Assembly: GCA_008632985.1 (NCBI GenBank)
Contig: QPGO01000267.1
Coordinates: 1-64,000 of the forward strand
DNA: 64,000 nt
DNA from: Psammoneis japonica
Lineage: Eukaryota
Reading direction: 5' to 3'
Below the pieces are notes generated by a model. The model searched no databases and was not told the DNA's origin. It saw only the letters and a program-made list of their open reading frames with translations. Made by a program: the position numbers and the translations under genes. Positions 3,130 through 41,095 of this stretch are shown piece after piece (the first letter of the stretch is position 1; every line of letters begins with the position of its first letter).

Positions 3130-6100
3130 ACAGCCCACAATGGCTCACTTGAACTTTCAGAACTTCTCACCCTGTGATGGCTCAGTCGTGAAGTCCACTG
3201 TCATTCTTTCATCTGTTGGGCAGCACTGTGCTCTCAGGCTGCCCTTCTCAAACTGATTTGCAACAAAAAACATCAGATGGCAAGTGCCCCAGACTGTTTT
3301 CCAGCACTCTTGCACCCATTGGTCTCAAGAGGGACATGGCACTCTTGCTGTCCTGACGTGGGACATTCTTGTCAATTGGGTGCCCTTGTTGGTGTTTCAC
3401 AAACAGTGTGGTCCACAGGACCACAGTCACAATGTTGTCAACTCTGATGAGTTCAGCTTCAGTGCTGCTTCAGGTGTTTGGTTTCTATCTCTTGGACATG
3501 GCCTGTGCATGGCTCCTTCACCCATCATCACAATGCCTCCAGTGTGGCTCTCATGTCTGGTGCACCATGATTGATGTGTCCACACACCACACTTGACAAT
3601 TGAAAGGTCTTTTGCACTCAGTGCAGCAATTTTGTTCCTTGTGCAGTTCAGGCACATGACACATCACACTGGCTTCCCCCAATCCTTGTTGGTTGGTTCC
3701 ATCACTCACATGCATGATGCTTCAATTGCAGGGTGCATGTCCATTTGACCTCTCTTGGACAGAAGTGGCCCTTTGGCCACCCACACATGGAAGAACTGTG
3801 CTTTGTCTGTCCACAACCTTGTGCCATCTGTGTCAAAGAGTTTCTCTTTTGATGGCATCATGCCAGCATCAGCAGTGCTCTTGACCCTCTCTGGAGCCTG
3901 TTTGATCATCTTGTGAACACACTTGATTGCATCAATCTTGACCTTGCTTTTCTTGCTGAAGTCCAGGGTCATCCCTGGACAGTCGTGTCTCTTTCCTCAC
4001 TTGGTCACAACAATTTCTCCATGCTGGCTTCTGCACATCTTGCCAAGCCAGCTCAGGAATGTGTTGTTGACCTTGCGGTTCTTGTGGCTTGACAACAAGT
4101 TGTCCATGTGGAATCTAATTGTGCCATCTGTCGTTGACTTTTCAATTGGCAATGCACGGATTGCATGGGTTGAACTTGAGCACAATTTTTTCCAGGTCTT
4201 TGCAAAATTGTTTGTGCCACAGCAGTGCTGCAATCAGCATGCCAGGTGTTGCTCAAACCACCTGGACGTGGCGGACTCTCTTCCTCTTTTCCGTGACCAC
4301 ATGTGGTCCATTTGGGTTGGGATTGTTGCTTGCTGGCATGTTGACCAACATTCCTGTGATCTTCATCATGATCCAGTCTTCTCCCTTCTCAGGCTCCAGC
4401 ACCTGGGTTTGGATGAAGGCATTCAGTGCATTGGTGCTCATCACATTGTGGTGTTCATTGGCATCAATGATGGCTGTCATCATTGCTCCTTTAAAAGTGA
4501 TGCCATTGGATTTGCTGATGTGCCCTTGTCTGGCCATTCTCTGGTCGGTTTTCCATTGCAGACCATTTGGCCTCTCACTGGGCCATCTTGTTTTTTGGTG
4601 AGGATCATTGAGGCTGCCAGAGCTCTCTTCCTCTCAGTTGGAGACATGTCCTTGATCAACATCAGTGCAAAGCACACCCTGTTGTGCAGTCATTTCACTT
4701 CTTTCTGTGATGCTTCATGTCCTTCTTGTTGGCCAAATGCCTTGAGGCCTTCATGCAGCAGGTGTTGTTTTGGGCAAGTGAGATGCCTTCTCCCCATTGG
4801 AGTCGGTCATCAGTCTCTCACATAAATTGCACTGTGACCATGCCTGACTCAATGTCATGTTCCATGTCCTGTTCTGGGTTGGGACTCACATTCACTCATG
4901 GATGGTGACAGCATTCAAGATTGCTTTGTCTGCACTTCTCCTCTTCTGTGTCTGCCACTCCTGTGTATTGCTCTTTTGTGTCTTGTTCTGATTCTTTGTG
5001 TCTTTGGTGATGTGTCACTGCACTGCATGCTGTTCTGCTTCTCACAGTTGAACATTCTTTGTGGGATTGGTTTCATTCAGAGCATCATCCTCATCCTCTT
5101 GACTGCTGTTGCCATCTTCTTGACTGCTGTCATCCTCACAATTGGCAACTGTGTTCTCATGCCGCTGATCTGAACTGAACCTTTTGTTGGCTGGTGCATC
5201 TTGGGCTTCATTGCACTCTTCATCTGAGTCTTCTTTGCACTCTTCTTTTTTGCTTTCTTCATCACTTTTTTGTTCTTTGTTGTTGCTTTTGCTTTTGCTG
5301 TCACTTTCTTTGCACTCCATTCCTTGAGTCCAATCAGTGTTGCTCAGGTTGTCTTTGCATTCCCCAAAAATTTGAGCACGTTAATCCCCTGGGCAATGGC
5401 CATTTTCTTGACAGCTCATGTGGCCACATTGGTCAGTGGGATCTTGATGCACTTGCAGGGGTTCAACAGTTTCCCATGTGTGAGTTCACAGTGCAATGTC
5501 TGCCCTTCAGAATGTCACATTGTGGTTGTGAGCATGTGGTGTCTGTGCCACAAGCTTCCACAGCATTTGTGACTTCTGTGGTTCTGTGTGGGACAGGACA
5601 AATTTTCCAAAGGAGCACCCAACATGCTTGTCACAACAGTCTAGATTTCATCTTTGCATGATTGCACACATGGACTGCACGTGTCCAAAATTCCCTCTTT
5701 CTGCAGGTGCACATTCAACATGACAGTGTTCTTGACAATGGCAGCCATGCTTGCACATCATCTTGGGCATTGTCTTTTTTGTGGCACATGGTGCGCTGTT
5801 GCTTGAGCTTGTTCTTTCACCATTTGGATGCTCTGCTCAACTTCCAGAATGTGGTCCTTGGCATTTGTGGATGTTGGCTCCAGGTTGTTCATGCCATTGG
5901 CAACTTCTGCCAACATGTCCTTGAACTCAACATTGCATTCAATGAAGTCAATCTTGAATGCAGCCATGCTGTGCTGTCACAGGATCATGTCCAGTGCATT
6001 GCACACACATCATCATGATTCTTGGACTTTAGTCTCACACTGGATCTGCACTTGATCATCTTGTCCATTGCATGCAGGAGCTCAACTCCGCATGCTTCCA

Positions 6101-6624
6101 TGACTCAGGATTGCCTTGCAGTCTTTGCTTCATCTGCTTGGCACAGCAATTGTCCAAGATCTTGGCAAACATGGCAGTTTTGTCATCCTTGAACTGTTCA
6201 ACCTCATCAAGGCAATCTCACATTTTCCTTTGAACAGCACATCATTCTCTCTGTCTTTGCACTCTTTCTCTCTCAGCTTTTCTTGGCAGTCTGTTGCATT
6301 GGTGTCTGGCATGACCACCATCAAAGCATTTGATGCAGCTTCTTGTGTGAAATCCTTGCACCCCACATCCTCAATGGATCTTGCTGAGTGCACTCCCTGC
6401 TCACACTCCTTGTGAATGCACTGAGTGATCTTCTTGTTTGCTTCTTCAAACATTGCATTGCAGGAGTTGCTGTTCAGTGACAAAGGATGAAACTTCACCT
6501 CAGCCTGAAAGTGATTTTTGTCATTGGGCCTCTTGTTGTTTGTAGACCTGTGCCTTCTGCCACCTCTTCCACCTTGACCTCCATGGTTTTGATGGGTTCC
6601 TCTGCCACCTCTTCTCCCACTCAT
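3130..6624 (-). pseudogene. Copia gag-pol relic (frameshifted, internally deleted)
   Basis: Gly/Arg-rich gag start at 6624. Integrase core HILEVEQSIQMVKEQ (5758-5967). RT motifs ERKRAL..KQDGPVRGQMVCNGKPTREW, NAFIQT and IRFHMDNLLSSH. RNase H motifs SHTGG and QDSKSA. No protease/GAG-pre-integrase region recognised between gag and IN. Confidence 0.9.
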
Positions 6625-6709
6625 GATGTGGGCATTCTCTCAATCCAATGAGGCAGCAGTCTCACAGCAAACAAACACCAACTCAGTGCTCCTGACTCTT
6701 TGGAGCAAA

Positions 6710-7060
6710 TGTTGAACTGACAAGTCAATGTCGCCAAAAGGGAACCCCACAAGGCATCCTGTGCTGCTTGTTGCACTTGTCCTGGCTGCTTTGACAACTG
6801 TGGTTTGCCTTGGCATCAATGTAAACTCTGCAACTGCCATGTTGCAAGCATCTCTTGACACCAATCAACAACCACACGCAAAAAGCAGATGATTTGCTCC
6901 AAAGAGTGAGAACAAAATGCACACATTCAATTGACATGGATGAGATTGTTGAACATGAAGAAATGCTCTTCTGATCCACATCAGAGATCAAAGATCTCTG
7001 CTTCAATGCATCCAGGTCACCTCACATGATGCCCGGGTCTCTCATCTTGTTGGTCCAACA
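6710..7060 (-). repeat. Copia 5' LTR
   Basis: Aligns end to end with 1391-1737. Confidence 0.95.
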
Positions 7061-9769
7061 CCCCCTCTCTCCAAAGCTTCTGGCCCAGTTGAAGTGGCTC
7101 ACTTTGCCAAAAACCTGTTTCTTGGTTGTCTCTGTCAATTTGCCTGCAAGCCAAACTGGCTCCCATCAATGGCAGATCAACAATGGCAGATCATGGGGTC
7201 AACTCCAGCAAGCATGACAACAAATGTGGGGGCCATGCTTTTCATCCACAGCACCAGACTTGCAACAGCACCAGATTCAGTGCAAAAGAAGCTTCTGGCG
7301 GTTTTGCAAATTGTCCTCCAAAGAGTGCTGTGACCAGATGATGGCATGCGACATTGTCAACTCATCTGTGCCTGGCATTGGATTTGACTGCTTGTTGAGC
7401 AAAGAAAAAATTGCCAGTTGGTGGCAAGAATCAGATTGAGGGGTCCAGGTGGTTGCTGCTTTTGATGTGTTTGCAGCTCATGGCAAGGCATTTTTGGCTG
7501 AGAGAACAAAAGTTAGCTTCTGGCATTTGCTGAGAAGATGTGCGCCCAGTTGTTTTCATCATCTGCGAAATTCCTTTGTGACATGCACACAACATTGCCC
7601 TGATGAAAGCTGGGCCTCCTCTTTCAACCAGACATGAAGTCATGCTGGACTTCAGATTTGTGCAAAAATGAGAGACTTGATGAGGAGAGAGGTGCACTTG
7701 GTTCAAGAACAATGGAAATGAGGGTGGCACAAGCTGGGAAATTCTTTGATGCAATCAAGAAGTGGGTGCGCACACTTGTTGCAGCTCAACAACAGAAAGA
7801 ATTGGATGTGCACACTTGCTTGTTGCAGATCAAAAACAGCCTGAGGGCAGAAGTGTGGAAGGCCAGAGGTGTGGCATCATCAATGAAGACCTTTTGGGCT
7901 TTGACAGCACAAAGGACACCACCCAGAGGTGACCAACTGCAGCTCATGTTCAAAGTTGAGCATGCGTCAAACAAAAGTGACTCAGCAAGTGTTGCCAGCA
8001 TGATGGCAAACCCTGCTGCTTCAACTTGAGGAACAAGCTCCAAGATGACAAGGACTGTGACAATCAGGGCAAGAGCAACTTCCAGCAACATCATTTTGGT
8101 TTGCTGTGGCTTTTGCCACATTGTTGCAACTTGGAACACCATGCACACAATGCCCTTCCACCACACAAGGCAAGACAGCTTGCTGTGTTTGGCTGCAAAT
8201 GTTGCAGGTTACAATGAGATGAACTGTGCTGTTGTTGCACTGGTTGCCATCCTGCTGGACAAAGGAAAAATGTGCCAGATTTGTGCAAAATCCTGTGTGA
8301 GTTTCTCATCTTTCAACTTGGTGATTTTTGCAGGAGGGTTGCACAAAAGGTTTTTTGGAGGGGGGGGGGGGGGGGGGGTGTCAGGCAATTTTCCAGGGAT
8401 GACAAAAATGACTGCATTTTCTTTCCTCTGTGCTTTCCAATTGCTGGCTTCTTTGACAGCACCAGCTCTCATTGCAAGGTGCTCTTTGCTGTCAGATTCA
8501 GCTCAACAAAGCCCAGTTTTCTGCCTCTGCAGCCTGCTGCCAGGCAACAGGAAGATTGCTCAGCTTGGCCAATTTGCTTGATGCTTGTTTCTTCCTCTGC
8601 AAGTCATTCAAGCAGCACCAAAGCTTTGTTGGATGCAACCAACAAACCAGAGTTGGGGGAAGTCCCATCTGTCAAGAGAACACAACCTCTTGGGTCACTC
8701 TGTAAAGTTGTTCCACCTTTTGAGCAGGATGCAGCCACCCAATCAAGGAAACATGATTGTTTGGAAAGGTGCTGCCAACGATGTTCTCTGACCAGAAAGC
8801 AAGTGTCTTGGGATGTGCGGGTGACCATTCTGAGAAAGTTGCACCCCAGCAGTCATCTGCGCTCTTGTGTTGTTTTCAAACTGTGCTTGGCAGTGCATCT
8901 GACACAGTGCAATTGGGGCCAAAGGTGCGAGATCTGCCTTCTGACTGGAGCATTTGTTGGAGTGCAAAAGTTGAGGCACAAAGGTGGCTGATGGAAACAC
9001 CCAATGAAGAGCACACCATCTTTCAAAAATTGGCCAACTCATTTGTTGTGCAACAATGAACATTTCAAAGACACTGGTGGACCTGCTGCTGGATGGTGGG
9101 AGGGCGACCAAGTCATTCTCTTGGAGTGGCATCATCAACTCTTGGAAGCTGTGGAAGCAAAATTGCCTGCCACACTTTGGCGCTGGCTCAGAGTGCTCCC
9201 TGAAAGTGCCACCCACCCTTCCAAGAGCATGTGGAGGGGGGTGGGATTGGCAGGAGGCATGTTCAGGACCTTGGGTGGAGATCTGACAATCACTGTGTCA
9301 CAAGCTGAGAGGGACAAGATGGAGGCTGTGGTCAGAGAGCTTGGCCTGTGCAAGAGCTGTTCATTGAATGGGCACAATCCCAGTCTTCAAGTTCAAGGGT
9401 CGTGAGAGGAAGAGCGAGGTTTTCTGGCAGAACATGAAATTCACACTGAACACCCGGCGATGTGGAGCAATTTGCTTCTCCTTTCCCATGACATCCAGCG
9501 GTGATTCGAATCGGTGTCATGGACTTGACGCATTTCACGGCGATCTTGTGCCGAAAAGCGTCATGATTCAGAATGAGCATTGCACACACGAAAGATTTTA
9601 CGTGATGATGTGAAACATGCTTTGTTGCCACAGAACGTTTTTTCCAATGCGCGATGAGAACAGCAGGAGCGAGTGAGAACCTGTCGTGATGGGAAGCTGT
9701 GAAAAGAGTTGCACAAAAACAAAAGAGCAACAAACGCACCTGAATTGTGCAAAAAAAAAAACCATGACA

Positions 9770-10626
9770 ATGTCATCCCCATGGGATGAAAGATGTCCAC
9801 CTGGTTGGTTCTGTTTCGGCCGTTTGCGGCTGCAAGGATTGAGAACAGAGCCACCTTGTGGAGCCGCATGTCTTGCCAGAGAAGCCTGCCTCTTAATTCT
9901 CATTTCTGACTTGGTGTGCATTGAGTTCCACACCATTTCCATCTCAGCCTTAAGCCCGTTCACATCTTCAAAGGCCGGAGGGATGAAAGCCCCAGTTTCG
10001 TGGTGGCGCTTTCATGAAGCCACAGAATGATTGTGCGACCCGACCATTCCTCCAGCAGTCGAGACCATCGCCTTGGAATGGGAGAAAGAAGATGTGTCCA
10101 GATGGTTGTCCCACCCAAATTGCTCAATGTGAAGTCGGGCCACCGCTTCCTCTCTTGTCTGACTTCTTCCAACAAAATTCTCCAGATTGGAAATGTTGGC
10201 AGCTCGTGGCCCTGAAATGATGTTGATGATGAGACCGCCGCTTTGAGGATCAGCGCAATGACACAATTGATCAATTGCATCAAAATCACTCAGATGAGGC
10301 ATCGAGATGTAAACTGTCGAATTGACCTCTGCCTTGTCAAGAAGATGCAGAAAGACAACAAAGGGGTGGCGATCGTGGGCATGTGACTCTCCTGCCAGTT
10401 CCTCCCCTTCTGGGTGTCGCAGACAAGTGGAAAGAAGGAAGACTTTGTCGGTGTGCAGCGGTTGCACGGGTTCGGCTTCTCCCAAGTTTGCCCAACTCTG
10501 GTCGACAAAATGCCCGTCGCTGACCCAAACAACTCTCTGCTGCTCCATGATTTCATGTTCATGGTTGCACCCGTCGTTAACTTCTTCGATCGGCCCAGCA
10601 GTCTCGCTCATGGTGCCATGCGCCAT
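9770..10626 (-). pseudogene. Hypothetical protein gene, TA-mutated
   Basis: ATG-initiated 204-aa ORF with protein-like composition, apparently continued by the 9598-9963 ORF. TA is lost but CG is retained. No family recognised. Confidence 0.45.
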
Positions 10627-16196: not shown

Positions 16197-16648
16197 GAGG
16201 TGTGCACATGATGTTGTTGATGTAAGTTTTGTGGTCTGGACTGCATGTTACTCTATGAAATAATCTTTAATAAGTACAGCAACCGATGGGTCTTGCAGGC
16301 AACCTCGTTTCAAGACGTTGCCTCTCTAGCCAGGCCTTGGGCCCTACTCTAGGCTTTACTCTCTTGACTACCGGTACATACTGTAGGGCCCTAGAGTGTG
16401 GCAAATCCTTGCCTACTATTCTGAGCTACCGGTAGCTCTACTGTACTACTACTCTCTATCGGGAGTAGGGCCTCTAGCTAGTAGCTAGCTAGAGAGTAGA
16501 GAGGAGCCATACGCACTCTCCCATCGCTCGTTCTGTGCTGTACCGGTGGAGTCCATCCCAAAACAAGACCCAGCACAAATTAAGACCCGCCGTGGGTAGC
16601 AGCACACAAAAGCGCGTAGAATTTTCTTTTGGTCGAAAGAATTTGAGA

Positions 16649-16704
16649 GGGGGTTGCATGAAAAATCGAAATTTTCATTTTCCCCTGTTTTTCACGTGTT
16701 TTCA
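16649..16704 (+). repeat. Left inverted repeat of the Harbinger element
   Basis: gttgcatgaaaaatcgaaattttcattttcccctgtttttc is matched exactly, in reverse complement, within 20388-20442. Confidence 0.95.
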
Positions 16705-17179
16705 AACATTTTGACTGAAGAAAAGTCGTCGTGTCGAGAAAGGGGGGCACAACTAATGTCGGTCGTCCATCATCTCGAGCATGCACTGGATGGCACCACG
16801 TGAGTGTGAGTCAGAGAGGGGGCAGCCAAATGTCGCCTTGTGACGTGCGCATCAGAAGCTCGCTGCTCGCGCCCCTGGCTTGAAGACGTCAGTGCTCTCG
16901 TCTCAATTGGCCACGCTCATCATTCGACCCACCAACGAGCTGACGTGCTGGGTGGGAGACATCATTGTTGTCATCACATCTGGCGGATTCAGCAGCAGCC
17001 TCAGTCATTGTAACTTTTGATGCTGAGACCGAGCTGCTGGACAAAGTTTTGCTGTTTTGCTTGTGCATCGCGAAACCCAACGAAAATTTGTTGCAGACAA
17101 GACAAACTGGCTCTCTTGCAGCTGTGACCAAAGAAATGTCACAATGAATGTTGCAAAATGTCCTAATTTCTCAATGGGT

Positions 17180-18247
17180 TCCCATTCATCTGAGCACTCC
17201 ACTTCAAAGGGTGTGCATCCCATCACAATGGAAAGCTGTGTGATGTTCGCCACTGCTTGGAAGACAAGGTGATGTGTCAATCGATCATGACGATGCGTTC
17301 TTGTCATCATTTGGAAGCGCTTGAACCAACCATTGACAGCTTCGTGGCGGGCGCGAGCGACAGTCTTCATGCACTGGCCGGCATTGCGCAGGCCGGTCGG
17401 GGCCACACAACACTGGCGTCCGTCACTGCATGCCCCATCAGCCAAGCAAAACTCTCCATCTTGAAGTTCACAATTGATCGCCTCTCGTGCTACACTCAAA
17501 TCAGGAATGCCAGCTGGGCAGGGGCCATTCACCCAAACTGTCCAACCTGTCTGAATGCATGCGGCGATTTCGCACCTGAGCCCTGCACCGTTGAATTTGT
17601 GCGAGTGCCAGATGGGGTCGAACGGCGATGGTTCGTTGATGCGATGGTCAGTGCCGTCCACCGTCACCTTGCACACACTGCCACTGTCATCCATGAACCT
17701 GTTCTCCCAATCAATCTGTGATGAAATTGTGGTGAATCAAATGTCAGTGCATTGATTTTCAAAGAGAAGTTGGAGTCATGGTGCGCACCAAGTTCAAATT
17801 CACAATTAGCGCCATCCCAACCCACACCCATTTTCTCAACGTATCCTCGTGCATGCCACCGCAGATTCTAGCCATCATGGTTTCAGTGTCACACAGTTTC
17901 AGAAAACAAAGTGTGCATGACAAATGAGTGGGTGGAAATCCGCGTGGGATGTTGCCATCATCTTCAAGAAGGCCCCACAACTCACACACTGCGTCTCGCG
18001 GAGAGCAGAAGCACGAGGCAAATCTGCGGTTCCAAATCCGTTGTGACCTCATTGGCCTCTGGATGACTGTCCCCGCAAGACAATCTGCTGTGGCTTTGGG
18101 CAGGCGCATTTGCATGGTGAGTGACACAGACGTGTGTTGCGCGCACGATGTTTTGTGTTGCATGCCAAAAAGATTGCTGCTGCGCCAGTTCCGTGCAGCA
18201 GTGTTTTTGTTGCCGCAGGTGGATTGATGGCCGGGTGGGGTTTTCAC
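17180..18247 (-). pseudogene. PIF/Harbinger (DDE_Tnp_4-type) transposase, two exons
   Basis: Motifs VDGTD..I.EP, W(H)SHKFNGAGLR(C)EIA, WVNGP, LADG and RARHEAVN. N-terminal exon ...FLKL(C)DTE...TLRKWVW. Intron about 17720-17785. Confidence 0.9.
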
Positions 18248-19062
18248 TCGTTTCCAACATCTGACAACAAGGTTTTGATGTTGGGCCTTTTAGCGAGATT
18301 CCCTTCGGGAACGCTTTTGGCGCGGTTTCGGAGCGCTTTTGGTGCGGTCCCGGAACGGTGGAAACACGGGAATGATGAAATGCCTGTTTTGTCGAATGGC
18401 ATTTCCGTGTTGGAGCCATTGGCGGTTGCCACAGATGTGGTTTAGCGCCAAACAATGCTGGCAGTTACAACAAACCCTTGCAGCTCAACTTGTGGCCACT
18501 GCAAATCAAAATTGTTGAGACTCCCAACAGCCGTTCTTTTTCTTAGAGAAAATAGAAACCTGTTTTGACGGGTGCACCTTTTTGCAATGAATCCATCTAA
18601 TCTGTTAAACTTTTACACTGTTGTGCCATGCTCAAACAGTTCTGACAACAGCGCGCTAATTGCGGTGCATCACATGTCTCATCGGCAGATTGAGAGGCTC
18701 CAAAGTTTGATTTCCGCACGAATCAGTGCAATCGAGAACGTTCTCGGAACAGTTTTGGAACGGTTTTGGAACGCTTTTGGAGTGGCATGCAAGGGAATCT
18801 TGAGCTCCAACACTTCACAACAGTTTCCCCCGACAGGCCTTTTTTTGGTTTTGGCGGTTGCAGCAATTTCAAATTTGCCGGGACTTGTGTGTGTGGGATT
18901 GACTGTCCCACACAAAGAGAGAGTTGAGACGGTCGTGAACAATTCAAATCGGAGTTTGGGATTTGATGCGAACCTTGCCACAGTGCAGCGAGCAACACGG
19001 CATTCAGAGGATTTGCAGCTTGCCTCATCACAAAATTGAGAACAGTGACCAACACACACACG

Positions 19063-20090
19063 ATGGTGCAAATGAACACAAGGAGCAAGTCAGTGCTTGG
19101 CGCTGACTTGAAGCCGCCTCCCGCCTTTCGAAAAAACTCGCCCGACTGGATGCTGCTCAGGGATCTCCTGTTGCAAAAAAGGGTCAATCCTGGAGCGTCA
19201 CCAAAGGAGGTTCAGTCTGTGCGTGCAGAGTTTTTGAAGTGTCCTCTTGCCAAATTTCGCACTCAGCTGCACAAGCTGAGGAAAGAAACTGGTTTCAACC
19301 TGCGTCAACGAAGCGCTGATGACAGCACTGCACCACCGGCAGATGATGGCACTGGTGGAAGCAAGTGTCGCCACATGCTGCACTTTGTCAAATGAAACAG
19401 AATGCACTCTCATGTTGCTCTTTTTTTCTCTTGACTGTTGTCCACTTGTTTCAAAAGGGGAAGACCTTGACATGGATGAGGACGAGCTCTCAGCCGATGT
19501 CGGCCTGCCGTCAGCCAAGGAAACTGGCATTTTTGCAGCTGTCGCCCCCGCTGCTTTGGACCCCCCAGCATTTGAGGACGACCAGACATTCAAGCCCATG
19601 GTTTTGCAGGCGACCTGCAAGGATTCTGTCAACAAGACAGACCATGTGGTGCTGGTGATTGCAGCTCCCTCAGGAGCATGCACTGAGGACCTTTCTAGCT
19701 TCAAGCTCACGGTGACGGGTGGTGGTTGGTTTTTACAGTGCACCTCCGAGTGGCCGGGTCACAGCATGGGCATGGACTCACTCCATGCTGTGCTGGTGGA
19801 GGAGGCACAATCCCAAGGAGACCAAGAGCTCAGGGATGTGCACAAGCGCCTGGGGGCACTTTCGCATCAGTTGTCCTCCATGAGGTTGTTGGACAGCGAT
19901 GTTTTGGCGTCAACAGCCGCTGTTCCTTTGCCCATCAAAGTGTCGAAAAAGATTGACAAAAGGCCCATCTTTTGGGGGGCAAGGATGGTTCAAGAATTGT
20001 GTGTGTTGACCTCAAAGCTGAGGACTCAACACACCGCTCCATGGAGAGCCCCAAGGTTGTGTTGATTGACGGCACCACTTGTGTGGAGAA
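19063..20090 (+). pseudogene. Harbinger second ORF (putative DNA-binding partner protein)
   Basis: Divergent from the transposase and inside the inverted repeats. Basic helical N-terminus, probable intron ~19360-19455 and a late frameshift. Confidence 0.6.
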
Positions 20091-20387
20091 GTGGGGTGTG
20101 CGGCGTTTCTTTTCATTTTGCACTGTTTTGGTTTTCACAGCAGCAACAAGGACAAGTGTGGCGGCTGTCATTGGAAACACCAGCAGTTTGGAACATTGGT
20201 TTGGTTGCATTGTTCTTACTTCTTAGCACAGCAGTGTCTTTACGTCTTAGTTTCAATCCACAAAACATCGTTGACAACAACACCGCGTAGCCTCCGCTGT
20301 TGGCTACATCGACACGAGTGCGGGCTGCTGCCTCGGCACCGCAGTCGGCAGCATCGGCTGTCGGCATGCGTGCTGTTCGCACGATCC

Positions 20388-20442
20388 TGAAAATGCGAGA
20401 AAAACAGGGGAAAATGAAAATTTCGATTTTTCATGCAACTCC
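20388..20442 (-). repeat. Right inverted repeat of the Harbinger element
   Basis: Near-exact reverse complement of 16649-16704. Confidence 0.95.
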
Positions 20443-20526
20443 GAGGCATCGCGTTCGAAAAAAAGAGCGCGACGAGAGCAGTCGATTGCCGCCCTTTTTA
20501 CCCCCCAGAGAAATCTTGGCCCTTGC

Positions 20527-26408: not shown

Positions 26409-27590
26409 TTAAGTGATTTGTCTGTTTTCGTCTTCAATTTGAAGAACCAATTCATGATCATGTTGAACGCCACCGGCTCCCTGCTGCTCCTCTTCATCTG
26501 ATTCATTTCGTGTTCGTTCTTCAGCTTCGCGCTCGGCTTCCCGGAGCAACTCATGAAACTGCCAAGCTCGAAGACAACATAATATCCAAACCAAAATCGG
26601 AAGCAGCATCCCAAAGAATGCCGTGGAATAATTGGTCGCCATGTCGACTTCTTCTTCCTTGGATTCTTCATCCTCTTTTAACTGCCTGATATTGAGGTAG
26701 TAGTAGAACGCATTCCAAGCCACACCGACGCCGATTGTCCCGTACAAGTACACCTTTGCCAATTGCAGCGTGTTTTCTGTTGTTGCCCGAATGCCAAGCA
26801 TCGCCACATAAAATCCGACTGCGTTAATAACCAAGTCGAAATAATCCGAAGTCCGCCAAGGTCTAATCTGGGATTGATCATGATTTGTCGGATCGGTAGG
26901 CTGTCCCGGGGGCGTGTCATCATCGCCACTGTCTTCAGGACCGCCCATCATGATTGTAAAGAGTTGTAAGAGTTCCATCGAGGACATTATCAAAAGCAAC
27001 AAGCACATGAGCTTGACACGATGTTGTGCTTCAAACACTTCATCTGACGCCAAAACCAAAATTTGCGACCGTCGTTCCGCTTCATCGGGGTCTAATACAA
27101 TACGTGGTACGTGTGCACCACCCGTTTCAGTCGAGTCTTCGTCTGGCTCCTCCTCATCGTCACATCCGCCCACCACAACATTGGGCTTTGGAAACAAATG
27201 AACAATGACCTTATCTGCCGCAATACCATTGTCTCGTAACGTTGAGTCATCCGCCAGCATTTTACCGTGGTAAATCAATCGCTGAGAAGCCGTGGGAACC
27301 TTGTGTACCGACACACCTCGGTTCTTAAATTCCTCCACCGTCCAATCCGGATTTGCCTTCACATTAAATTTTGACTGTGCCGGGTCTAGTACCACGACTG
27401 CAATGAAATCCTTCTCGTCATCATCGTCCTCCTCTACCAGTGGAGGAGGTTCCAACGTGAGCGACTCGGCTTCGGGATCGAGCGGGTCGTGCAGCGAAAC
27501 GGATGCCTGATCTTCTTCTTGTTCCACAACATCACCTGAAGATGAAACTCGGGTATATGCCCGACGATTGGAACGGCCTTGTCTTGCCAT
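26409..27590 (-). CDS. Ubiquitin-like-domain multi-pass membrane protein
   Basis: 393-aa ORF with UBL motif QRLIYHGKMLADDSTLRDNGI, four hydrophobic segments and acidic linkers. Confidence 0.85.
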   Translation of the reverse strand: MARQGRSNRRAYTRVSSSGDVVEQEEDQASVSLHDPLDPEAESLTLEPPPLVEEDDDDEKDFIAVVVLDPAQSKFNVKANPDWTVEEFKNRGVSVHKVPTASQRLIYHGKMLADDSTLRDNGIAADKVIVHLFPKPNVVVGGCDDEEEPDEDSTETGGAHVPRIVLDPDEAERRSQILVLASDEVFEAQHRVKLMCLLLLIMSSMELLQLFTIMMGGPEDSGDDDTPPGQPTDPTNHDQSQIRPWRTSDYFDLVINAVGFYVAMLGIRATTENTLQLAKVYLYGTIGVGVAWNAFYYYLNIRQLKEDEESKEEEVDMATNYSTAFFGMLLPILVWILCCLRAWQFHELLREAEREAEERTRNESDEEEQQGAGGVQHDHELVLQIEDENRQIT

Positions 27591-28065
27591 TGCAACTGTT
27601 TTAAAAAGCGTCTTTAGGAAAACACGAAAAGAGAAAGTTGGAATTTACAGGGCGCTGTCCTGTACCAACGTGATAAAATATGGAACTGAGATAGCGAGTC
27701 GCAGCGAAGCCCTTGTCACCGACCGTATTGACTCAGACTGTGCAACGCTTCGTCTTTTTATGATGTCTTGGTGCGCAGTGTTTGCAAGAGCAGTGTCCCT
27801 TTCTCCAAATACCGCTTTATTGTTGGGTCCCACGAAGGTTGCTGCCGCGTGTTCAGTGTTGTCTGTTGTTGCATCAACACGCGCGACTCCGCTCCTTGCA
27901 TGCTGTGAACGGACACGCACGGGAGCAACGGCGAGCGAAAAAAATCGACAAACGAACACTACAACGTCAAGATGACGTCATTTTAGAACATGTGCCCACC
28001 CACCGCCCCCGCCCGCCCACTCTCTACAGTGATGACTGCTGCGCAAGCTGCGAAACTTCCCAGCC

Positions 28066-28240
28066 TGCAAGATCTAGCTTGAGATGACTTGATAAAAGTT
28101 GTGGGAGAACCGAGGAGAGACCCCATCATCGCTGATGCAGCCCAAACCTAACGGTTTCCCGCATGTCTGACATGTTGGTTAACATGCATGCACCAGAGAG
28201 GGCACACTCGGTCATAGAGTGAGTGCGCCTGTCTCATTCA
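28066..28240 (-). repeat. Gypsy 3' LTR
   Basis: Colinear with 33499-33673 and adjacent to the PPT. Confidence 0.97.
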
Positions 28241-28347
28241 CTCTTCCCCTCCATGGTGCAAGGAACACGTGCACCATTGGAACCACTTGACTAAAATTCA
28301 AACCCACTGGGCACGGAGAAGGGAACCCAGACATTGGGAAGAAACCC

Positions 28348-31300
28348 TCAACTCCGATGCGGCACCACACGGCGAACATTGATTCGCTCGACAACGTGCG
28401 GTGCTCGCAGCACCGAAATGGTCCCGTTGGCGTGGACTTGTGCAATTCGAAATGGACCACAAGCTCGTTCTTCCAACTTCGAAGGATCCACCGACTTGAT
28501 CAACACATCTTGACCAACCAGACAATCGCAGAGGAGTGTCGCTTCGCATTCTGTCATCGTAGATTCTCGTCGATCAACACTTGTCGGTTGGCTTGTGTCG
28601 TTGCGAGGTTGGAGATGACAGGCAGGTCCAAAATCACATCACGTTGAAACACTGGAGCTCCACTTGAAACACCCACAGACCTTGAGTGGGAGCATCGCAA
28701 AGCATGAGAGGCTGTGGCAAGGGCATCGTCCACAATCTGCTCGGCCTGTTGAGCCTTTGAAGGTGGGTTGGCAAAAACCACAGCACGCAAGACATCAGCT
28801 GCCGTCTGGTGCATTCATTCACAACAGAGTTGGCTGTGGGATTTTGAGACGTGTCAGAGCATCAGCAACACCCGCTTGATTCAGTGGCATTTGGAATTCC
28901 CACCAATGAATTCTCCACCATTGTCATGGATGCATCGATTCGGTCTGGGACAACGAGCCAACCAAAGGTTGCGAAACTTGTTGTCACATGCTGAGAAGTT
29001 TTGTTGTCAATGCGCATGAGTTCAGTCAATCCAGTGACAGCATCAACACAAGTGAGAGTGCTGAATTCAATCTCTTGATCTTGAATCAGGATCTTCCATG
29101 GTCCAATGAGATCACTGCTGCTTCCATCCACGGAGCCAACGGCGCTTGACGTTGAGGCAACTCTCCACACCCAGGGCCCAGTTGTTTAAATGTTGACACG
29201 CATCGCAGACAAATTCATTGCAACATTGACGCAACGCAGGATGATGCATGTGAGTCCGAATGCTTCACACAATCGCACGACTCCCAATGGCCCAATGCAC
29301 GATGATGCCATGCAATGACATCCGGCAACAACGCAGCAGGAACACAAATCTTCCAGGCTCCAGGCAGATCATTCAAATGCAAACAACAACAAATCAGGGG
29401 ACGATGGTTCACAATCTTGACCACAAACTGCTGCAGATTTTGTTGTCTTTGCTGGTTCAGTTGGAGGTCTTTGAACTGGAACTGTTGGATCCTCAATGTC
29501 TCAGCAGGTTCAGCATCTCGTCCAGTGTTGGATGATTTAAAAAGCATTCAAACAATTCAGGCTGTCAAGCAGAGAGGAAAAGGCAGTGTGAGACTCATCA
29601 GAAGGATCAACAGGAGCATGGCAACACTTGAACCTGCAAGCGCCCAACTCCAAATCTTCCTCGTCCTTGGCCTTGGAATCCAACTTTTCAAAATGAACAT
29701 TTTTCCTTTGCGTTTCCCACTTGGCCCAAGGCTCTTCCCCTCCAAAGGCGGATCCACACGTGGCAGACAAGAAAAACAATCGGCAAGCACGTTTCCTTGC
29801 CTTCGACATGCTCAAACGCAGGTGCAAAATCTTCGAGGAACAGTGCCAACGAAGGACGCACTGTGTGTTCAAAGTGCGAAAGGTGAGATTTTTGTGATCA
29901 GCATGAACAGTGATGTCAGCACCGAGCAGCATCGAGTGAAATTCTTTGAAGCACATGACGACGGCAAGCAGTTCCTTTTCCATTGTCGAGCAGTTTTGTT
30001 GAGCCGCCGAAAGTTTCTTAGACCAGCACGCCACCGGTTTGCCATCTTGAACAATGGCGGCACCCATTTGGCAGTCTGATGCATCGGTGTAAACATGGAA
30101 TGGCAGGTTGTGGTCAGGGCAGGCCATCAATGCTTCCGCCGCGATCCTGCTTTCATCTGTCGAACGCTTTCTGACATGATTCCGTCCATTGGAACTGACT
30201 CTTGCCTGTCAATTCAGTCAGAGGTGCAAGCAGGTGAGAACGGCAAGGCCACATGTTACGACAATGAGTTGCTGCACTGAGAAACGATCGGAGTTGAGCA
30301 GTGTTCCGTGGAGGTTGCATTCGTAGAATCGCCTCGACTTTTTCTTCCACGGTTTGCTGCCAGTCGGAGCAAGCCAATGCCCCAAGAAATCGGTTTCTTG
30401 AACACACCACTCGCAATTCAACGGATTGACTTTTAAACCATTCTCTTCGAGACAATGGCACCTTGTCAAGACAAGAGAGATGGCAATCAAAGTCAGCATC
30501 AAATGCTCCAATGTCATCAACACAAGTTTCGACACCCAAACCATGAAGGATCTTTTCAATGATGGACTGAGCAATGTCTGGAGCTGGCTTCAATCCCACA
30601 GCCATGCGACAGCACTGAAACTTTCCACAGGGAGTTGCAATTGTGGCGAGCTCCTTGCTTTCATCGTCCAACTCCAAATTGCAGTAGAACACAGTGAGAT
30701 CCAATTTTGTGAAGAATTTGTAGCCCGCTCTTCATTGTAGCACATCTTGAACAACCGGCAGAGGATGCACTTTCCACTTGAGGACCTCATTGAGCTCCCA
30801 AAAATCTGATGCCCATCACACTCGACTGTCCTTCTTTGGAGTGATAAAAGCACCAGCTGCCCATTCCGCAGGTCCACATGGTTGCAGCACGCCGAGATTC
30901 ACCAAGTGCTTCAATTCCTTTTTGAACGCTTCTTCATTAACTCGAGCAACAGGAAACGGTTTTGAGTGACAAGGAACAGCATTTTCATCCACTTCAAGGT
31001 GCCTTTTCATGAGGACAGTGGCCCAATGTTCCGTCAAACAAAGTCGAATGCTTTTCCAACACCGCCAGCAGTTTCTTCTTTTGTTCTTCCATGAGATGGT
31101 CCAGATTCCGAACTGCCTCCGCCGGATCCGTCGCTTTGCACTTGGCATCGAGCATGCAGGTGTTGCATCCGCAGTCCGACTCTCTTCACAATCTTCATCA
31201 AATTCATCCATTCGGTCAAAGCAACACGCCAATTGCAGGACTTGGACCAATGACGAGGCTCCTTCATTGGGATTACGTGGTCTAACCAACGCAGCATTCT

Positions 31301-33190
31301 CGTGTCATAGTTCAAATTGAGGCCAATCTCACCAAGAAATCTTGACCCAAAATGACATCATGCGCACACGGAGCATCGAACACGTGAGCCACACAGCCGT
31401 CAATCCTCCTGGTCTTGTCAAATTCGGCAATGCAATGTCGCTCAAGGCCACCCAATGACCCGACTGGAAAGGACCTGCAACGGTTTGAAAAGCTCGGACT
31501 CCATGTTCATCAATGGATGGCACGGCTCCTTGAGGTAAAACTTGAGACGAGATCATAGTGTGAGAACCACCTGAGTCAAACAAGACACGCATCACATGAT
31601 TCGACTCATGCTGCTGGATCAATTTTGCAACAAGCAGTGCAGATGGGACCAACGCAGCACGCGAGACTTGCGATTTCATTTTGGGGAGAGGAATGTGATG
31701 CTCAAATGCATCTTGATCGAACACGTCCCCCTCTTCATTCATGTGATTTTCTGTGGCATTTTCAAATTCAACAGGCAACAATTTGTCAGGATTTTCAAAA
31801 CAATCAAAAACAAAACATTCACCATTTCTTTCAGGCAAAACACAATCATTTTCATCAACAAGTGCTTCTCTCACAGGCAATTGGGAGCACTCAGTTCCGG
31901 AGCATTCAGCTCCTTCTTCTCAGAACTGCCGAGGAAACTGCCCATCTGGCTGAAACCTCACCACACCTCCATGATGTGGAGGGCCTCGTCTGATCACATC
32001 GAAATGGCGCACATCACCACAAGGAGCTTCTGAGCCTGGTTGTCATTGTTCACATTGTCTGCTTGAGCAGCACATCCGTCGGCCTGACCTTGGCCTCCAC
32101 GGTTGTTGTTTTCAACATGACAATGCTGACCACCACCTTGGTTGCCATTGTTGTTTTGGTGTCCATTGTTGTTGTTGTTGTTGTTGTTGTGACAGGTGCC
32201 ACGACCTCCTTGGCTCTGGTTGCCACGACCACCAAAGCATCCACCGCCTCCACGGCCTTGTCCACGGCCTCCTTGGAAACGACCTCCGCCTCAACCTCCA
32301 CTGCCACGGCCTCCTCCTCAACCGCCACGGTTTTGAGGCCCACGATGGTTGGGGTTGTTTGGTCATCATGACACTGGCCCCATGTGTGCCTTCCATGGTG
32401 CCACGGGACCGGACACGGATCATTCGCCTTTGGTTGGCCCTTGCCATCCTTCTTGTCTCGGTTGCCCTTTTTGTCACTAGAGTTCCCTCCGTTGCCATTG
32501 TTGGACTTGCGCTTCTTGTTGTCCTGACCATCAGTGAACACCTTCTCATTGCTCATGGGCTTGGACATCCACCATCGAGTCCGTAACAAGGTTCTTGCCC
32601 GCACGAATGCAAGACTGCTGCCAGGTCAAAGGGAAGGTGCAGAAGACAATGTTTTTCTGCTCCTGCTCTGTAAGTTCAGGAACGGTTCCAGGCAAACGGT
32701 CAGTGCAACGAAACAACATTTCCATGCGATCAATGTGAGTTTCTGATTCCGCTGAATGAGGCTTTTTGCAAGTGGGCAAATGCATCTTCATCGTGTCGCG
32801 AGCTGTTGGTTTCACGCAGCGCAAACAGCAAGCCGAGATGGCCTGATTGAATCGAGCCACCGTCCGTTGATTCTGTTGGATGCCCGTGGCAACATTCTGC
32901 CATTTTGCCTCTGCAGCACCCTGAAGACAATCCTCGAAAGCATCAAACAATTCTGGTCCGGTGTCACAGTCGAGCTGTCTTGCCACCTTCCGGAACCCAT
33001 CCTCCACCGTGCAACAATGATTCAATTCCATGCTCTCCTGTGAAAATGGGACACATTTTTGAAAGTTTAGCACCATCATCAAAGGTTTGAGTGAGCTTCA
33101 CTTCCTGCAATTCTGAATCCATGAATTTGGTCTTACACTCAATGCACGCTTTCTCCAAGGCTTCTTGACACATGGCAATGAACAATTTCA
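28348..33190 (-). pseudogene. Gypsy gag-pol relic
   Basis: Gag knuckle CPVPWHHGRHTWGQC. Protease VLFDSGGSHT. RT FITPKKD, TKLD.., ETCVDDI. RNase [20 protein letters not shown]. Integrase DLIGPW and DNGGEF, with a GPF motif. Confidence 0.93.
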
Positions 33191-33498
33191 GCAATCAAAC
33201 AATCAACAATTCACAAGATGAACAAAACAAAGCATTCCCAATTGATCCACACAACGAGAACAATTGACAACCAAACAAGAACGAATTCAACAGCAGCAAC
33301 ACGAGCTTCAAGTTCAAATGAACGCTGCTCCAAATCGCCAATTTCACGAGCATGATTGCGCTGCGATTCTGATCAACTTCGAATGAAATTTTCTGCATGC
33401 GCTCGCAAACAGATTTTCTCTCTTCTCGACAACCCTCTTCGTGTTGTCATAAAACTGACAATGCAATGAACAAGCTGTGACAACGACTGTAATTGCAG

Positions 33499-33673
33499 TG
33501 CAAGATCTAGCTTGAGATGACTTGACAAAAGTTGTGGGAGAACCAAGGAGAGACCCCATCATTGCTGATGCAGCCCAAACCCAACGGTTTCCCATGTGTC
33601 CAATGCGCCAGTTAATGCGCATGTGTCAGAGAGGGCACACTCGGTCATAGAGTGCATGTGCCTGTCTCATTCA
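33499..33673 (-). repeat. Gypsy 5' LTR
   Basis: Colinear with 28066-28240. Confidence 0.97.
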
Positions 33674-34222
33674 CAGCCAACACCACTTTCACATGTCCCA
33701 ACTAAATGTCTCACCCATGGCACTGCCAGATTGTGCAGTCTCTGGCTGCAAAGTGACACACACACTCCAGCCCCAGGTGTGGGGGGGCGGGGGGGGGGGG
33801 GGGGGGGGGCACATTGTCAACTGTCAACCAACCAGTGCAAATGCAAACAACTTCCAACAGAAGAAGACACAGTTTTTTTTTAGCGAGTGACACCCCCGTG
33901 CTGCAAGTGCATCATTTCTCTAGTGTGGCAGCAAGCTGTGCCTTGCAAAGACACCAAAAAGCATGCTGGCAAAATGACAGCCAGCTCAGCTGCATCCTCA
34001 GAAATGAACAAAACCAAGTGCCCGCTCTCTCACACAAAATGGAGCTTGAAAAAGTTTTGCAAAAGAGCTCTGCTGTGCATGCAAAGCACCACTGCACCTC
34101 CCCCCCATTCTGACCCTCAAAGATGTGACTCTTCTGGCCTGCTTCCCCCTCCACAAGTGTTGACGAGGCTTCATTGTGCACTCAACAATGCTGGAGCTGA
34201 GTGACACCTTAAGTGGGGGAAC

Positions 34223-34990
34223 TTGATGCCATTGGAAGCAAAAAGCATCAAAAGTTTCATGGTGAGTGCACTGGATGTTCCCACCAATGATGAGCTCAAG
34301 TGTCACTTGGAGTGTTCTCTTGCAGGAAGGATTGAGTTAGAGTCACCTCGTTTCCTGAACAGAGCTGCCTTCTGTGAAGGTCTGTTGGACAAGATCAGCC
34401 ATGGCACGGATCCACTCAATGACAAAGACTGCTGTTTTCTCTGTGTGAGCTGGGTGCGCAATCAACTGTGGCACAGAGGAATGCATTTCCAAAACAGTTG
34501 ATGCCCTGAGATGTGCACGCACACTGAATGGCCTCGCGGACATGCGCCGCTTCATTGACGCTAGACTGAGAAAGGTGACAATCAACTTTTTGTGCACCAT
34601 TTGCAACAAAGTTGTGACCAGCATAAAGGGAGGTTGATTGTGCTGCCTTGTCTTCATGTGTTTCATCAATCTTGCCTCCGTCAGTGGCTGTCGATTGATC
34701 ACAGAAAGAAGAGCTGGAGCTGCCACAAAGCTGTCGCGCAAACGTTTCTGGCAATGCTCAAACCAACTGCACATCAACCAAGATGAACAGATCAGAACTC
34801 AGGTGGATGATTTGTTGCTCTTGGGTTCATGCACAAAATGCATGGTGTGGTTCTGTGAGCGAGATGTCAAAAACAAGTGCGTGCCTCCCAAGCCCATGTC
34901 AGTTGACCCAGCGGAAGTGCGGGCTTGCAACAAATTGATTGTGAAGGGCACTGCTGTCTTTGAGCACATCTCATTGGACATTTCTTGAGA
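34223..34990 (+). pseudogene. RING-H2 finger gene relic, TA-mutated
   Basis: CTIC (34591) followed, after a frameshift, by LPCLHVFHQSCLRQWL...SCHK. Confidence 0.65.
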
Positions 34991-35387
34991 CTGGGCCTCT
35001 GGCTCATGCAGATTCACTTTCTCACATTGGTGGTTTCCAGAAAAGGTCGAGCCAATTGTGCCGTTTTTGCCGTCCGGCCATTTGGCTTTCACTGCAGCAA
35101 GCAAAATGGTGCGGTGCTCTCTGGGAATGCCAGCATCAGGTGTCGCAGCAGCTGGAATAAAAAGCAAATAAAACAACTTTGACTACATTTTAGAACATGT
35201 GCCGATGGTGCATGTGGCAGCCCTACACATTTATAGGAGCGATGTAGGACAGAATGGGAACTGGAAGTCTGGACGGCGGCGCGGCGTCGCAGTCGTCGTC
35301 GTCTTGCCTTGGTCTTGCTTCATTTTTTGCGGGTCTCGTTGACAGACCACAGGCAGACCTCCTGTGTATGATATTGTTTTATTTATT

Positions 35388-39799: not shown

Positions 39800-40980
39800 C
39801 GTTCAACTCAGGCCTGCTGCTAACACAGCATCAAGTGGAACAGAAGAGAACTCACACGGAGGCACTTTTCACACCTTCCAGAGCAATGCAATGTCATCAC
39901 CACTGGCTTGTGAAACTGAAGTGAGCGCATTCTAAATTAAGCGCCAACAATGCAGCCTTGCCAGTTTTTTGCATGGTGGCACTTCCCATTGCAGATTCAG
40001 CGACACCATTTTTCATTTTTCAGCTTTTCAGCTGATGTTTTGGATCTGGATGTGCAGCATCTCCTGTTGCAGCCTCTGCAAAGACAACAATGAAGATGTC
40101 ATTGCTGCATCAAATGATTTGATCAACTTGGCTGTCAAGTGGATCATGGCACAAGTCCTTCCACTTTCATGGTGGAAGTGCAGCAGCACTTTAAATCAAA
40201 TGCAGGGCTTCTCTTCAGCTTTGGAAACATCCTTGCACAGGACATGCTGTCACTTTGTTCAACGCCAAGATCTCAAACAAGGTGGCCATTTCCCCATCAG
40301 TTGTTTTCTTGACAAAAGCAGCACTCACATTCTGACAGGCGCGTGAGTTTGCAACCTGCACTGGCATCATTGTCGTCACCCATGAACCATGCGCAGCTTG
40401 GCTTGAGACAGTTGTGGCCTTGACACTCTTCAGATCATGAGACATGTGTGGATCTTGCAAGGAGCACTGTTTGCTTTGCCACAACCTTTTTCTCAAACTT
40501 TGCCACTGTTGCTGGGAGTTTGTGCATGAAAATGACTGCTGCAGCGCCTCTGCGCTGTGGCTGAATGACTGGGGGGCTTTTGGCTCTTTTTCTGTGGCTG
40601 AATTGTGACATAGGCTGCCTCCTGCCTGACAAGCAATGAGAACCCTGCTGTTGTGCAGAGAGGAAAATCACGGGGCCACCACAGAGATCATTGCGGGCAC
40701 AGAGCAAAAATTGCTTAAAAATCAGCTGCGAGAGCTGACGAGTTCGGAGTGTGCAGTGGGAGTGTGTCGTTTGCATTTTCGGACTGAGTGTCTCCAGCGC
40801 AACCCCAGCGAGTTGTGTGGCTCCCAGCCGAGCTTCTTTCTTCTTTGTTGCTTTGTTGTGTGCCTGCAGTGGTGGATTGTCATGCTCTTGTTTTGAGATC
40901 TGTCAACGTTCTTGATTGGCGCGAGAGAATGATGCGCCCGCGGAGTGATGAGACAGGAGATGAGCACACAGAGCGCGGGC
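39800..40980. mobile_element. Small TA-depleted island, unclassified relic
   Basis: Very few TA over ~1.2 kb between two normal genes. No TIR/TSD or protein family recognised. Confidence 0.5.
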
Positions 40981-41095
40981 GCGGGACCACACAATACAAG
41001 GGATCGAGTGCTCGAGGGGCGACCTCCATTTATCACTTCCATCCGACAACAGCACTTTACATAAGCCATCATTGGAGATCGAAGCCATCACCATC

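Follow-up and report, generated by a model that had tools for sequence, protein, structure and literature searches.

The 64-kb stretch of algal DNA analysed here (contig QPGO01000267.1, positions 1 to 64,000), referred to in the following as the window, contains a dead Ty3/Gypsy retrotransposon on its minus strand (element B, 28066-33673), whose two long terminal repeats (LTRs) have diverged almost exclusively at pyrimidine–purine (YR) steps. We think it likely that every transposon block of the window has undergone transitions directed at TA and at CG, both ending in CA or TG, and that the two LTRs of an element were altered independently of each other. The data show a defined direction of decay, its restriction to transposon blocks, a rule of flanking bases that governs the survival of TA, and an excess of CA/TG double swaps between LTRs. 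All positions are those of the window, and all of the evidence comes from this single 64-kb window.

The LTRs of element B align without gaps and are identical at 151 of 175 positions (86.3%); 23 of the 24 differing sites are transitions. These differences are not evenly spread over sequence contexts, since 22 of them fall on the 90 sites that belong to YR steps and two on the remaining 85 (0.244 versus 0.024, Fisher P=1.2e-5). Among the 44 aligned YR steps there are six CA/TG double swaps, i.e. CA in one LTR facing TG in the other, six steps with CG facing TG or CA, two with TA facing CA, and none with CG facing TA. An earlier note on this DNA had described gapless 175-bp LTRs that differ mainly at YR steps, and this tabulation by context bears it out; its four single examples (TA/CA twice, CG/CA and CG/TG) and the cluster of swaps between LTR positions 96 and 128 were all found. 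The sole two differences outside YR steps, at 28175 and 28193 (LTR positions 110 and 128), each adjoin a CA/TG swap, where the LTRs read TTG versus CCA and CAC versus TGT, and the hypermutation process may, on occasion, reach an adjacent base too. The divergence between the LTRs (Kimura two-parameter distance) falls from 0.159, when all sites are counted, to 0.024 when the count is confined to the 85 non-YR sites, i.e. an age derived from LTR divergence is inflated about six-fold, as the earlier note had warned.

From which ancestral state the double swaps descend can be judged from their mirror image. If they arose by two independent changes from CA or TG ancestors, the two kinds of pair, CG/TA and CA/TG, should occur in about equal numbers. 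In a second LTR element of the window, element A, YR sites account for 42 of the 55 differences between the LTRs (P=5e-5); CA/TG swaps number 11 there and CG/TA is absent, and both elements together have 17 CA/TG swaps and no CG/TA among 38 differing YR steps. This ratio of 17 to 0 therefore points to an unstable palindromic ancestor, TA or CG, which each LTR resolved separately; the same had been proposed in the earlier note, and the directional decay of both TA and CG described below speaks for it as well. As a control, 27 direct-repeat pairs were taken from 78 related Gypsy loci in metagenomes, including pairs of 81-85% identity, and none of their 135 differing YR steps is a swap, versus 17 of 38 here (Fisher P=2e-13). 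Within the window itself, a tandem duplicate in normal DNA (54434-54606/54777-54949, 173 bp, 82.7% identity) behaves unlike the LTR pairs: only 13 of its 30 differences are transitions, CA/TG swaps number 0 and both copies have five TA in common.

The direction of change was read from the codons of Pol. Element B was compared by tblastn with 59 full-length Pol relatives, and codons were kept at which at least 20 relatives aligned with at least 70% residue agreement; removal of overlapping frames left 439 codons, of which 105 had changed. Thirty-nine changed codons were excluded, 25 because they required several steps and 14 because they were ambiguous (including Arg to stop and Arg to Trp). 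The 66 unambiguous single steps consist of 27 TA>TG, 10 TA>CA, five CG>CA, two CG>TG, seven other transitions and 15 transversions, i.e. TA gave way to TG or CA in 37 of 66 and CG to TG or CA in seven of 66, and A>G or T>C outside of TpA occurred three times. Thus, the decay of TA and that of CG are both directional in element B. Conserved Tyr is kept in three of 21 codons, 13 having become TGY and five CAY (13:5); the set of 22 Tyr codons obtained when overlapping frames were not yet removed reads TGC (7), TGT (6), CAT (5), TAC (3) and TTT (1). The excess of TA>TG over TA>CA is in part an effect of detection, since third-position T>C changes are silent. Conserved His (17/18), Leu (54/60), Gly (30/35) and Gln encoded by CAR (9/11) were largely retained. 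Conserved Arg encoded by CGN is still CGN in 22 codons and has become TGN or CAN in 10 of 32, which corresponds to 31% loss of CpG. Changes from His to Arg or from Gln to Arg were not found in conserved codons, so A>G is bound to a preceding T, i.e. to TpA. Before the removal of overlapping frames, all six Val>Ala changes were GTA>GCA, and T preceded three of three Met>Val, four of four Thr>Ala and five of seven Ile>Val changes.

Observed/expected (o/e) ratios of dinucleotides and TA counts in 500-bp bins place this decay in the window as a whole, which is bimodal. Five TA-poor blocks together comprise 27,935 bp with 115 TA; the remaining 36,065 bp contain 1,498 TA. Inside the blocks the TA o/e is 0-0.2 throughout and that of CA+TG is 1.4 to 2.3, whereas the loss of CG, in contrast to the uniform loss of TA, varies from block to block (CG o/e 0 to 0.9), and TA loss appears to finish before CG loss does. 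For element B the ratios are 0.09 (TA), 0.67 (CG), 1.59 (CA) and 1.51 (TG) with 0.61 TA per 100 bp, and for element A they are 0.03, 0.08, 2.13 and 1.84 with 0.23 TA per 100 bp; the GC content of the affected DNA is unchanged (0.47-0.50). An element of 3.8 kb bounded by terminal inverted repeats (TIRs) is as TA-poor as the LTR elements, and its TA density shifts sharply at both repeat ends. Eight open reading frames (ORFs) of the host are normal, with TA o/e of 0.46-0.61 and CG o/e of 0.85-1.12, and relative to the latter the 0.08-0.67 found in the elements is a directional depletion of CpG.

One could ask whether avoidance of TA is simply a compositional habit of this family, brought about by selection or codon usage rather than by mutation of dead copies. 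TA is indeed under-represented all over the window, including the host ORFs, but the 78 related Gypsy loci are TA-normal (o/e 0.45-1.08, 5.5 TA per 100 bp), and TA loss is therefore no habit of the element clade. In addition, 18 of 21 conserved Tyr, some of them in the polymerase core, have turned into Cys or His, and with the stops and frame shifts that accompany them no working protein can be made. We therefore regard a compositional habit as scarcely credible, and family-wide avoidance of TA was rejected on account of the lost Tyr.

Even more remote is cytosine editing, be it repeat-induced point mutation (RIP) of the fungal type, i.e. C>T at CpA, or editing of the APOBEC type. Hypermutation by transitions that is restricted to transposons is typical of such systems; yet these create TpA and lower the GC content, whereas the elements studied here have TA o/e of 0.03-0.09 and an excess of CA and TG, and they have kept the His (CAY) and Gln (CAR) codons in the proportions given above. 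C>T changes by RIP or APOBEC were thus rejected as running in the opposite direction. As far as the cited accounts go, fungal RIP produces C>T mostly at CpA and yields TpA-rich, AT-rich DNA (PMC7296669, PMC2621366). What the window shares with it is a defence-like hypermutation of transposons by transitions, the destruction of coding capacity, a dinucleotide signature and sharp block edges; unlike in RIP, TpA is destroyed and GC is unchanged.

The TA that have survived obey a rule of flanking bases. None of the 34 TA that survive in element B stands between a purine and a pyrimidine (R-TA-Y), versus 29% of the TA in its relatives (P=1.2e-5), and 14 of 34 stand in the reverse context Y-TA-R, versus 20% in the relatives (P=0.004). 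When all blocks are compared with normal DNA, survival is 0.53 for TTAA, 0.26 for CTAA, 0.15 for GTAA, 0.14 for CTAG, 0.07 for ATAG, 0.06 for ATAA, 0.06 for CTAC, 0.03 for ATAC, 0.01 for GTAC and 0 for ATAT. This ranking approximates the product of two per-strand terms, according to which A is most exposed before T or C, intermediate before G and least exposed before A. The same rule is seen on the opposite strand, as four of five Tyr>His changes come after a G. The target thus looks like 5'-TAY; because TA is palindromic, an attack on A in TAY is indistinguishable from one on T in RTA. A preference for TAY narrows the search for an enzyme.

Other copies of the family show that the loss is a matter of individual copies. 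Read-derived contigs of three sequencing runs were placed on element B at 80% likeness; one of these runs, X1, is possibly the source of the window's own assembly and no independent check of its base calls. From this run 2,948 contigs were placed, so the family of element B is abundant, and 453 of them are at least 99% like the window copy. Places that differ from the family contigs comprise 1,098 transitions and 211 transversions. Site-by-site family states rest on 40 listed places of 1,320 differing ones, one of which lies in the LTR. Among the places listed, other copies have TA where the window copy has TG or CA at six, with shares of 0.21-1.00 (1.00 at 28759, 0.64 at 32347, 0.54 at 32364, 0.47 at 32370 and 0.44 at 32386); likewise among those listed, other copies have CG versus TG or CA here at five places and TG or CA versus CG here at six. 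Since other copies keep TA, its loss is specific to the copy. A search of metagenome and viral contig collections with the LTR pattern gave 0 family copies in each. Among the sequencing runs listed as matching the region none is from RNA, which has no bearing on the question of expression.

These contigs also bear on the question whether the pattern could be an artefact of assembly or base calling, in which a long-read caller misread modified bases at TA and CG at random with respect to strand. The changes concern just those YR steps that are palindromic, in agreement with symmetric modification, many single-base gaps separate the window copy from the family contigs, and the best run contains 0.40 of the region's sampled words. 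Nevertheless, we consider such an artefact very improbable: 453 of the 2,948 contigs agree with the window copy to at least 99% and have its TG and CA alongside the TA of other copies in the same run, and the loss of CG varies between blocks (0 to 0.9) next to a uniform loss of TA. Target-site duplications, block edges that coincide with LTR or TIR ends, and transversions rather suit genuine ageing.

At the level of mechanism, two processes would account for the likely reading given at the outset. A stronger and faster one would convert 5'-TA-3' to TG or CA, i.e. A>G on either strand with a preference for 5'-TAY, which is the product expected of a nucleic-acid adenine deaminase as far as can be told from the changes themselves. 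A slower one would convert CG to TG or CA, as might result from deamination of methylated cytosine. With TA and CG both palindromic, either strand would be open to change. Each LTR would be altered after its duplication, and a single ancestral TA or CG that one LTR resolved to TG and its partner to CA would appear as a double swap. We infer that the changes fell on the integrated copy, i.e. on chromosomal DNA, because the LTRs differ, both strands are affected and the TIR element, which has no complementary DNA (cDNA) stage, is equally poor in TA; for the LTR elements, unintegrated double-stranded cDNA may also have been the place of change.

How much of the swapping in element B is owed to TA is best weighed against an alternative in which the LTR differences reflect ordinary decay of CpG in a heavily methylated, CpG-dense LTR patch that ran almost to its end in both copies, TA having been lost earlier, prior to integration or in its course, for instance by editing of RNA or cDNA, and playing no part in the differences between the LTRs. 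The two TA/CA differences do lie within the background rate, and at LTR positions 108-109 and 120-121, where one LTR keeps CG, a third copy shows CA, the third possible outcome, so that TG, CG and CA all occur across the two LTRs and this copy, as a CG ancestor would lead one to expect. However, a CpG-only model needs 74% loss in the LTRs versus the 31% found in conserved Arg codons of the same element (10/32; likelihood-ratio statistic 10.9, P=0.001), and at 31% CpG loss the chance of at least six swaps in 14 informative sites is 3.5e-5. TA loss, which amounts to 86% in element B, predicts many swaps. Moreover, TA was lost on two strands (13 TGY, 5 CAY), unlike in the editing of a single RNA or cDNA strand, the TIR element is equally TA-depleted without a cDNA stage, and TA is kept by other family copies. 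We thus hold CpG decay alone to be unlikely, and because of the discrepancy between 74% and 31% most swaps of element B are probably TA steps altered after duplication of the LTRs, a conclusion that derives from rates. Editing of one strand of RNA or cDNA as the sole cause was rejected, since the changes are found on both strands and in a DNA transposon and set the two LTRs apart.

Several observations do weigh against the two-process reading. The LTR counts taken alone (two shared, six single, six swaps) fit the CpG-only model (p=0.74). Three TA are common to both LTRs, where a uniform loss of 86% predicts about 0.3, and this excess requires the flank rule; two of them stand in the contexts that resist loss best, CTAG and TTAA. 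Flanks of the R..Y type are not significantly enriched at the swap sites (7/17 versus 21/83, P=0.24). At four of the six swap sites (97-98, 103-104, 106-107 and 126-127), third copies, whose LTR states come from two short stretches of family contigs compared by eye, read TG, which is uninformative as to the ancestor, and in no case TA or CG; at LTR position 84 a third copy has CA as does LTR2, so that the TA of LTR1 could be a gain. At 28226, 29235 and 30161 every placed contig has TG or CA and the window copy CG; such CG unique to the window copy may be a gain of CpG here or a loss of CpG in the lineage of the source copy. Finally, TAY>TGY should leave a trace in the share of TGY that can be read without an alignment; this share is elevated in five of six blocks (0.53-0.575 versus 0.503) but not in element B (0.507 versus 0.503, P=0.79).

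Hypermutation restricted to TpA has been described for integrated DNA of nucleocytoplasmic large DNA viruses (NCLDV) and virophages in Bigelowiella natans (Mettrop et al., bioRxiv 10.64898/2026.01.13.699255). According to the main text of this preprint, 231 of 302 de novo mutations fell in two integrated viral regions, and 230 of these 231 were A>G or T>C, every one on TpA; clusters poor in TpA and rich in CpA+TpG were found as well, reverse transcriptase and DDE domains were over-represented among coding sequences poor in TpA, and an ADAT2-like adenine deaminase was proposed, with TadA/ADAT2-ADAT3 as candidates (10.64898/2026.01.13.699255). By that account, the window resembles B. natans in that A>G or T>C at TpA gives TpG or CpA depending on the strand, and in that the process is confined to foreign or mobile DNA, the blocks here being LTR and TIR elements and the host ORFs being normal. 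Likewise, most 500-bp bins of the blocks have a Rho of at most 0.43 for TpA and of at least 1.52 for CpA+TpG, the values used in B. natans (10.64898/2026.01.13.699255). In the preprint's own material, however, the rate was measured directly, on single-copy viral insertions that still have 3.3% TpA, whereas here the process is deduced from dead LTR and TIR elements with near-complete loss (0.2-0.6 TA per 100 bp). In its main text 'flanking', 'CpG', 'LTR' and 'retrotransposon' have 0 occurrences (10.64898/2026.01.13.699255); what the window adds to that text is the preference for a pyrimidine in 3' position, a slower decay of CpG that accompanies the loss of TpA, and the argument from LTR pairs for action after integration. 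Also unlike B. natans, the host looks diatom-like and not like a chlorarachniophyte: for its LCAT and malonyl-CoA decarboxylase, the closest relatives that bear a name come from diatoms (only 42% and 55% identity), and Bigelowiella proteins were absent from the matches to these two. A literature search returned no second report of TpA-only hypermutation of foreign DNA, and none for diatoms.

In methylated transposons, deamination of 5-methylcytosine turns CG into TG or CA on either strand, leaves TpA untouched and inflates LTR divergence, and CpG sites are commonly left out when LTRs are dated. The window shares with this process the change of CG to TG or CA and its greater extent in the older element (CG o/e 0.08 in element A, 0.67 in element B), but here TpA was also lost, apparently earlier than CpG, and more fully. 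ADAR prefers U before the edited A and G after it. As far as the cited account goes, editing of retroelements by ADAR or APOBEC takes place before integration on RNA or single-stranded cDNA, affects one strand and leaves identical LTRs (PMC4866542). Common to both situations are deaminase-type transitions on retroelements and, for ADAR, the preference for a 5' U; the window differs in that both strands are altered, the LTRs differ, a DNA transposon is affected and a pyrimidine follows in 3' position instead of the G of ADAR. tRNA deaminases act on A34, which is invariably preceded by U33, and the bacterial enzyme TadA edits U-A-C. This context of TadA/ADAT2-ADAT3 matches the 5'-TAY found here, which is a resemblance of sequence context only, and a gene for TadA or ADAT2-ADAT3 was not found within the 64-kb window.

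Our data suggest that the same signature is present in a second, probably unrelated algal lineage, and that the TpA signature is saturated in LTR as well as TIR transposons and was active after LTR duplication. Whether it amounts to a genome defence is more doubtful, although still a real possibility: a diatom-like alga might possess an RIP-like but adenine-based system, in which a DNA deaminase acting on 5'-TAY erases TpA soon after insertion. Such a deaminase would strip TpA from integrated retrotransposons and DNA transposons, and methylation-driven CpG decay would follow later and more slowly. In that case, the editing of invading DNA at TpA would be widespread in eukaryotes, and TA-free blocks rich in CA and TG would be its fossil record.

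The anatomy of element B and of the other features of the window is summarized in table 1. The ends of the two repeats (TG...CA) and the 5-mer CAGCC on both sides identify these as the LTRs of a single insertion. On the minus strand Pol has the order protease – reverse transcriptase – RNase H – integrase, i.e. the Ty3/Gypsy arrangement, and its frame is interrupted many times. Among the domains of element B, the RNase H match alone passes Pfam's own cut-off. The Pfam scan of the window ORFs detected nothing at the integrase half (28351-29843); the protein P0001, from which the alignment of this half stems, carries Pfam rve (PF00665), and the Pol relatives of element B carry RVT_1, RT_RNaseH, Integrase_H2C2 and rve. 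The nearest Pol proteins in a large protein collection share 44-76% identity with parts of the query, and the few named ones are from diatoms. A primer-binding site of the TGG type was sought after the 5' LTR and none was recognised.

Table 1. Coordinates of elements, repeats, domain remnants and TA-poor blocks in the window, with their basis.
Feature	Position	Strand	Basis
TA-poor, CA+TG-rich block 1, contains element A	1-10500		0-3 TA per 500 bp; CG o/e 0-0.2 until 9500
Element A, second, older LTR element	1391-7060	+	LTRs 1391-1737 (347 bp) and 6710-7060 (351 bp), 82.7% identity
TA-poor block around the TIR element	16501-20500		500-bp bins
TIR-bounded 3.8-kb element	16650-20442		55-bp TIRs 16650-16704/20388-20442, 92.7% identity
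Weak DDE_Tnp_4 (PIF/Harbinger-type) remnant in the TIR element	17008-17736		20.1 bits, cut-off 24.8
Target-site duplication CAGCC, left copy	28061-28065		read directly; same 5-mer as 33674-33678
TA-poor block spanning element B and its right neighbour	28066-35000		500-bp bins
Element B LTR, 3' in element orientation, TG...CA ends	28066-28240	-	175 bp, gapless 86.3% match to 33499-33673
LTR patch, LTR positions 95-128, partner 33593-33626	28160-28193		all 6 CA/TG swaps and 3/6 CG/TG-or-CA differences
Polypurine tract GGAGGGGAAGAG (minus-strand letters)	28241-28252	-	abuts the 3' LTR on its upstream side
Integrase-bearing C-terminal half of Pol, frame shifts and stops	28351-29843	-	tblastn, P0001 residues 647-1142
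RNase H domain of Pol	29537-30208	-	Pfam RT_RNaseH, E 9e-24
Reverse transcriptase remnant	30153-30731	-	RVT_1, E 9e-6, 25.9 bits, cut-off 29.6; tblastn with 59 Pol relatives agrees
Aspartic protease remnant	31329-31919	-	Asp_protease_2, E 0.0036, below cut-off; N-terminal parts of homologues align
Element B LTR, 5' in element orientation	33499-33673	-	175-bp direct repeat
Target-site duplication CAGCC, right copy	33674-33678		read directly
TA- and CG-poor stretch abutting element B on the right, without recognisable domain	33674-35000		bins; domain scan
Short TA-poor block	40001-41000		500-bp bins
TA- and CG-poor block without recognisable domain	57501-63000		bins; domain scan

Element A is bordered by the target-site duplication CCCCC (1386-1390 and 7061-7065) and retains 13 TA and 26 CG in 5.7 kb; a permissive tblastn search with the 59 Pol proteins gave nothing credible, its similarity to Pol and to proteins being gone. 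The TIRs of the 16650-20442 element differ by one CA/TG swap, and six retained TA form a small cluster within it (20217-20305). Pfam matches are absent in four of the five blocks, and a domain scan of 74 ORFs of the blocks other than that of element B gave sub-threshold matches only. Long open frames without Pfam domain are present in the TA-poor, CA/TG-rich stretches 1-1390, 7066-10500, 40001-41000 and 57501-63000, because stop codons are scarce in the absence of TA. These domain-less blocks are probably remnants of transposons that have decayed past recognition, and hypermutated elements evade domain searches.

Within 13126-49590 lie compact genes of the host, which occupy both strands and have few introns or none; host ORFs are unbroken for up to 768 codons. 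They encode a RING/SWIM protein, a PI-PLC-like protein, a type I phosphodiesterase, a ubiquitin-domain protein, a RING protein and a sulfotransferase as well as the malonyl-CoA decarboxylase, the LCAT-type acyltransferase and an ARMT1-like phosphatase. The left flank of element B is normal (27501-28000; TA o/e 0.46, CG 1.15), whereas its right flank is poorer in CG (0.17-0.5) than element B itself, which therefore sits on the border of a hypermutated block of greater age. Just to the right of element B, at 33781-33809, there is a run of 28 G broken by a single C.

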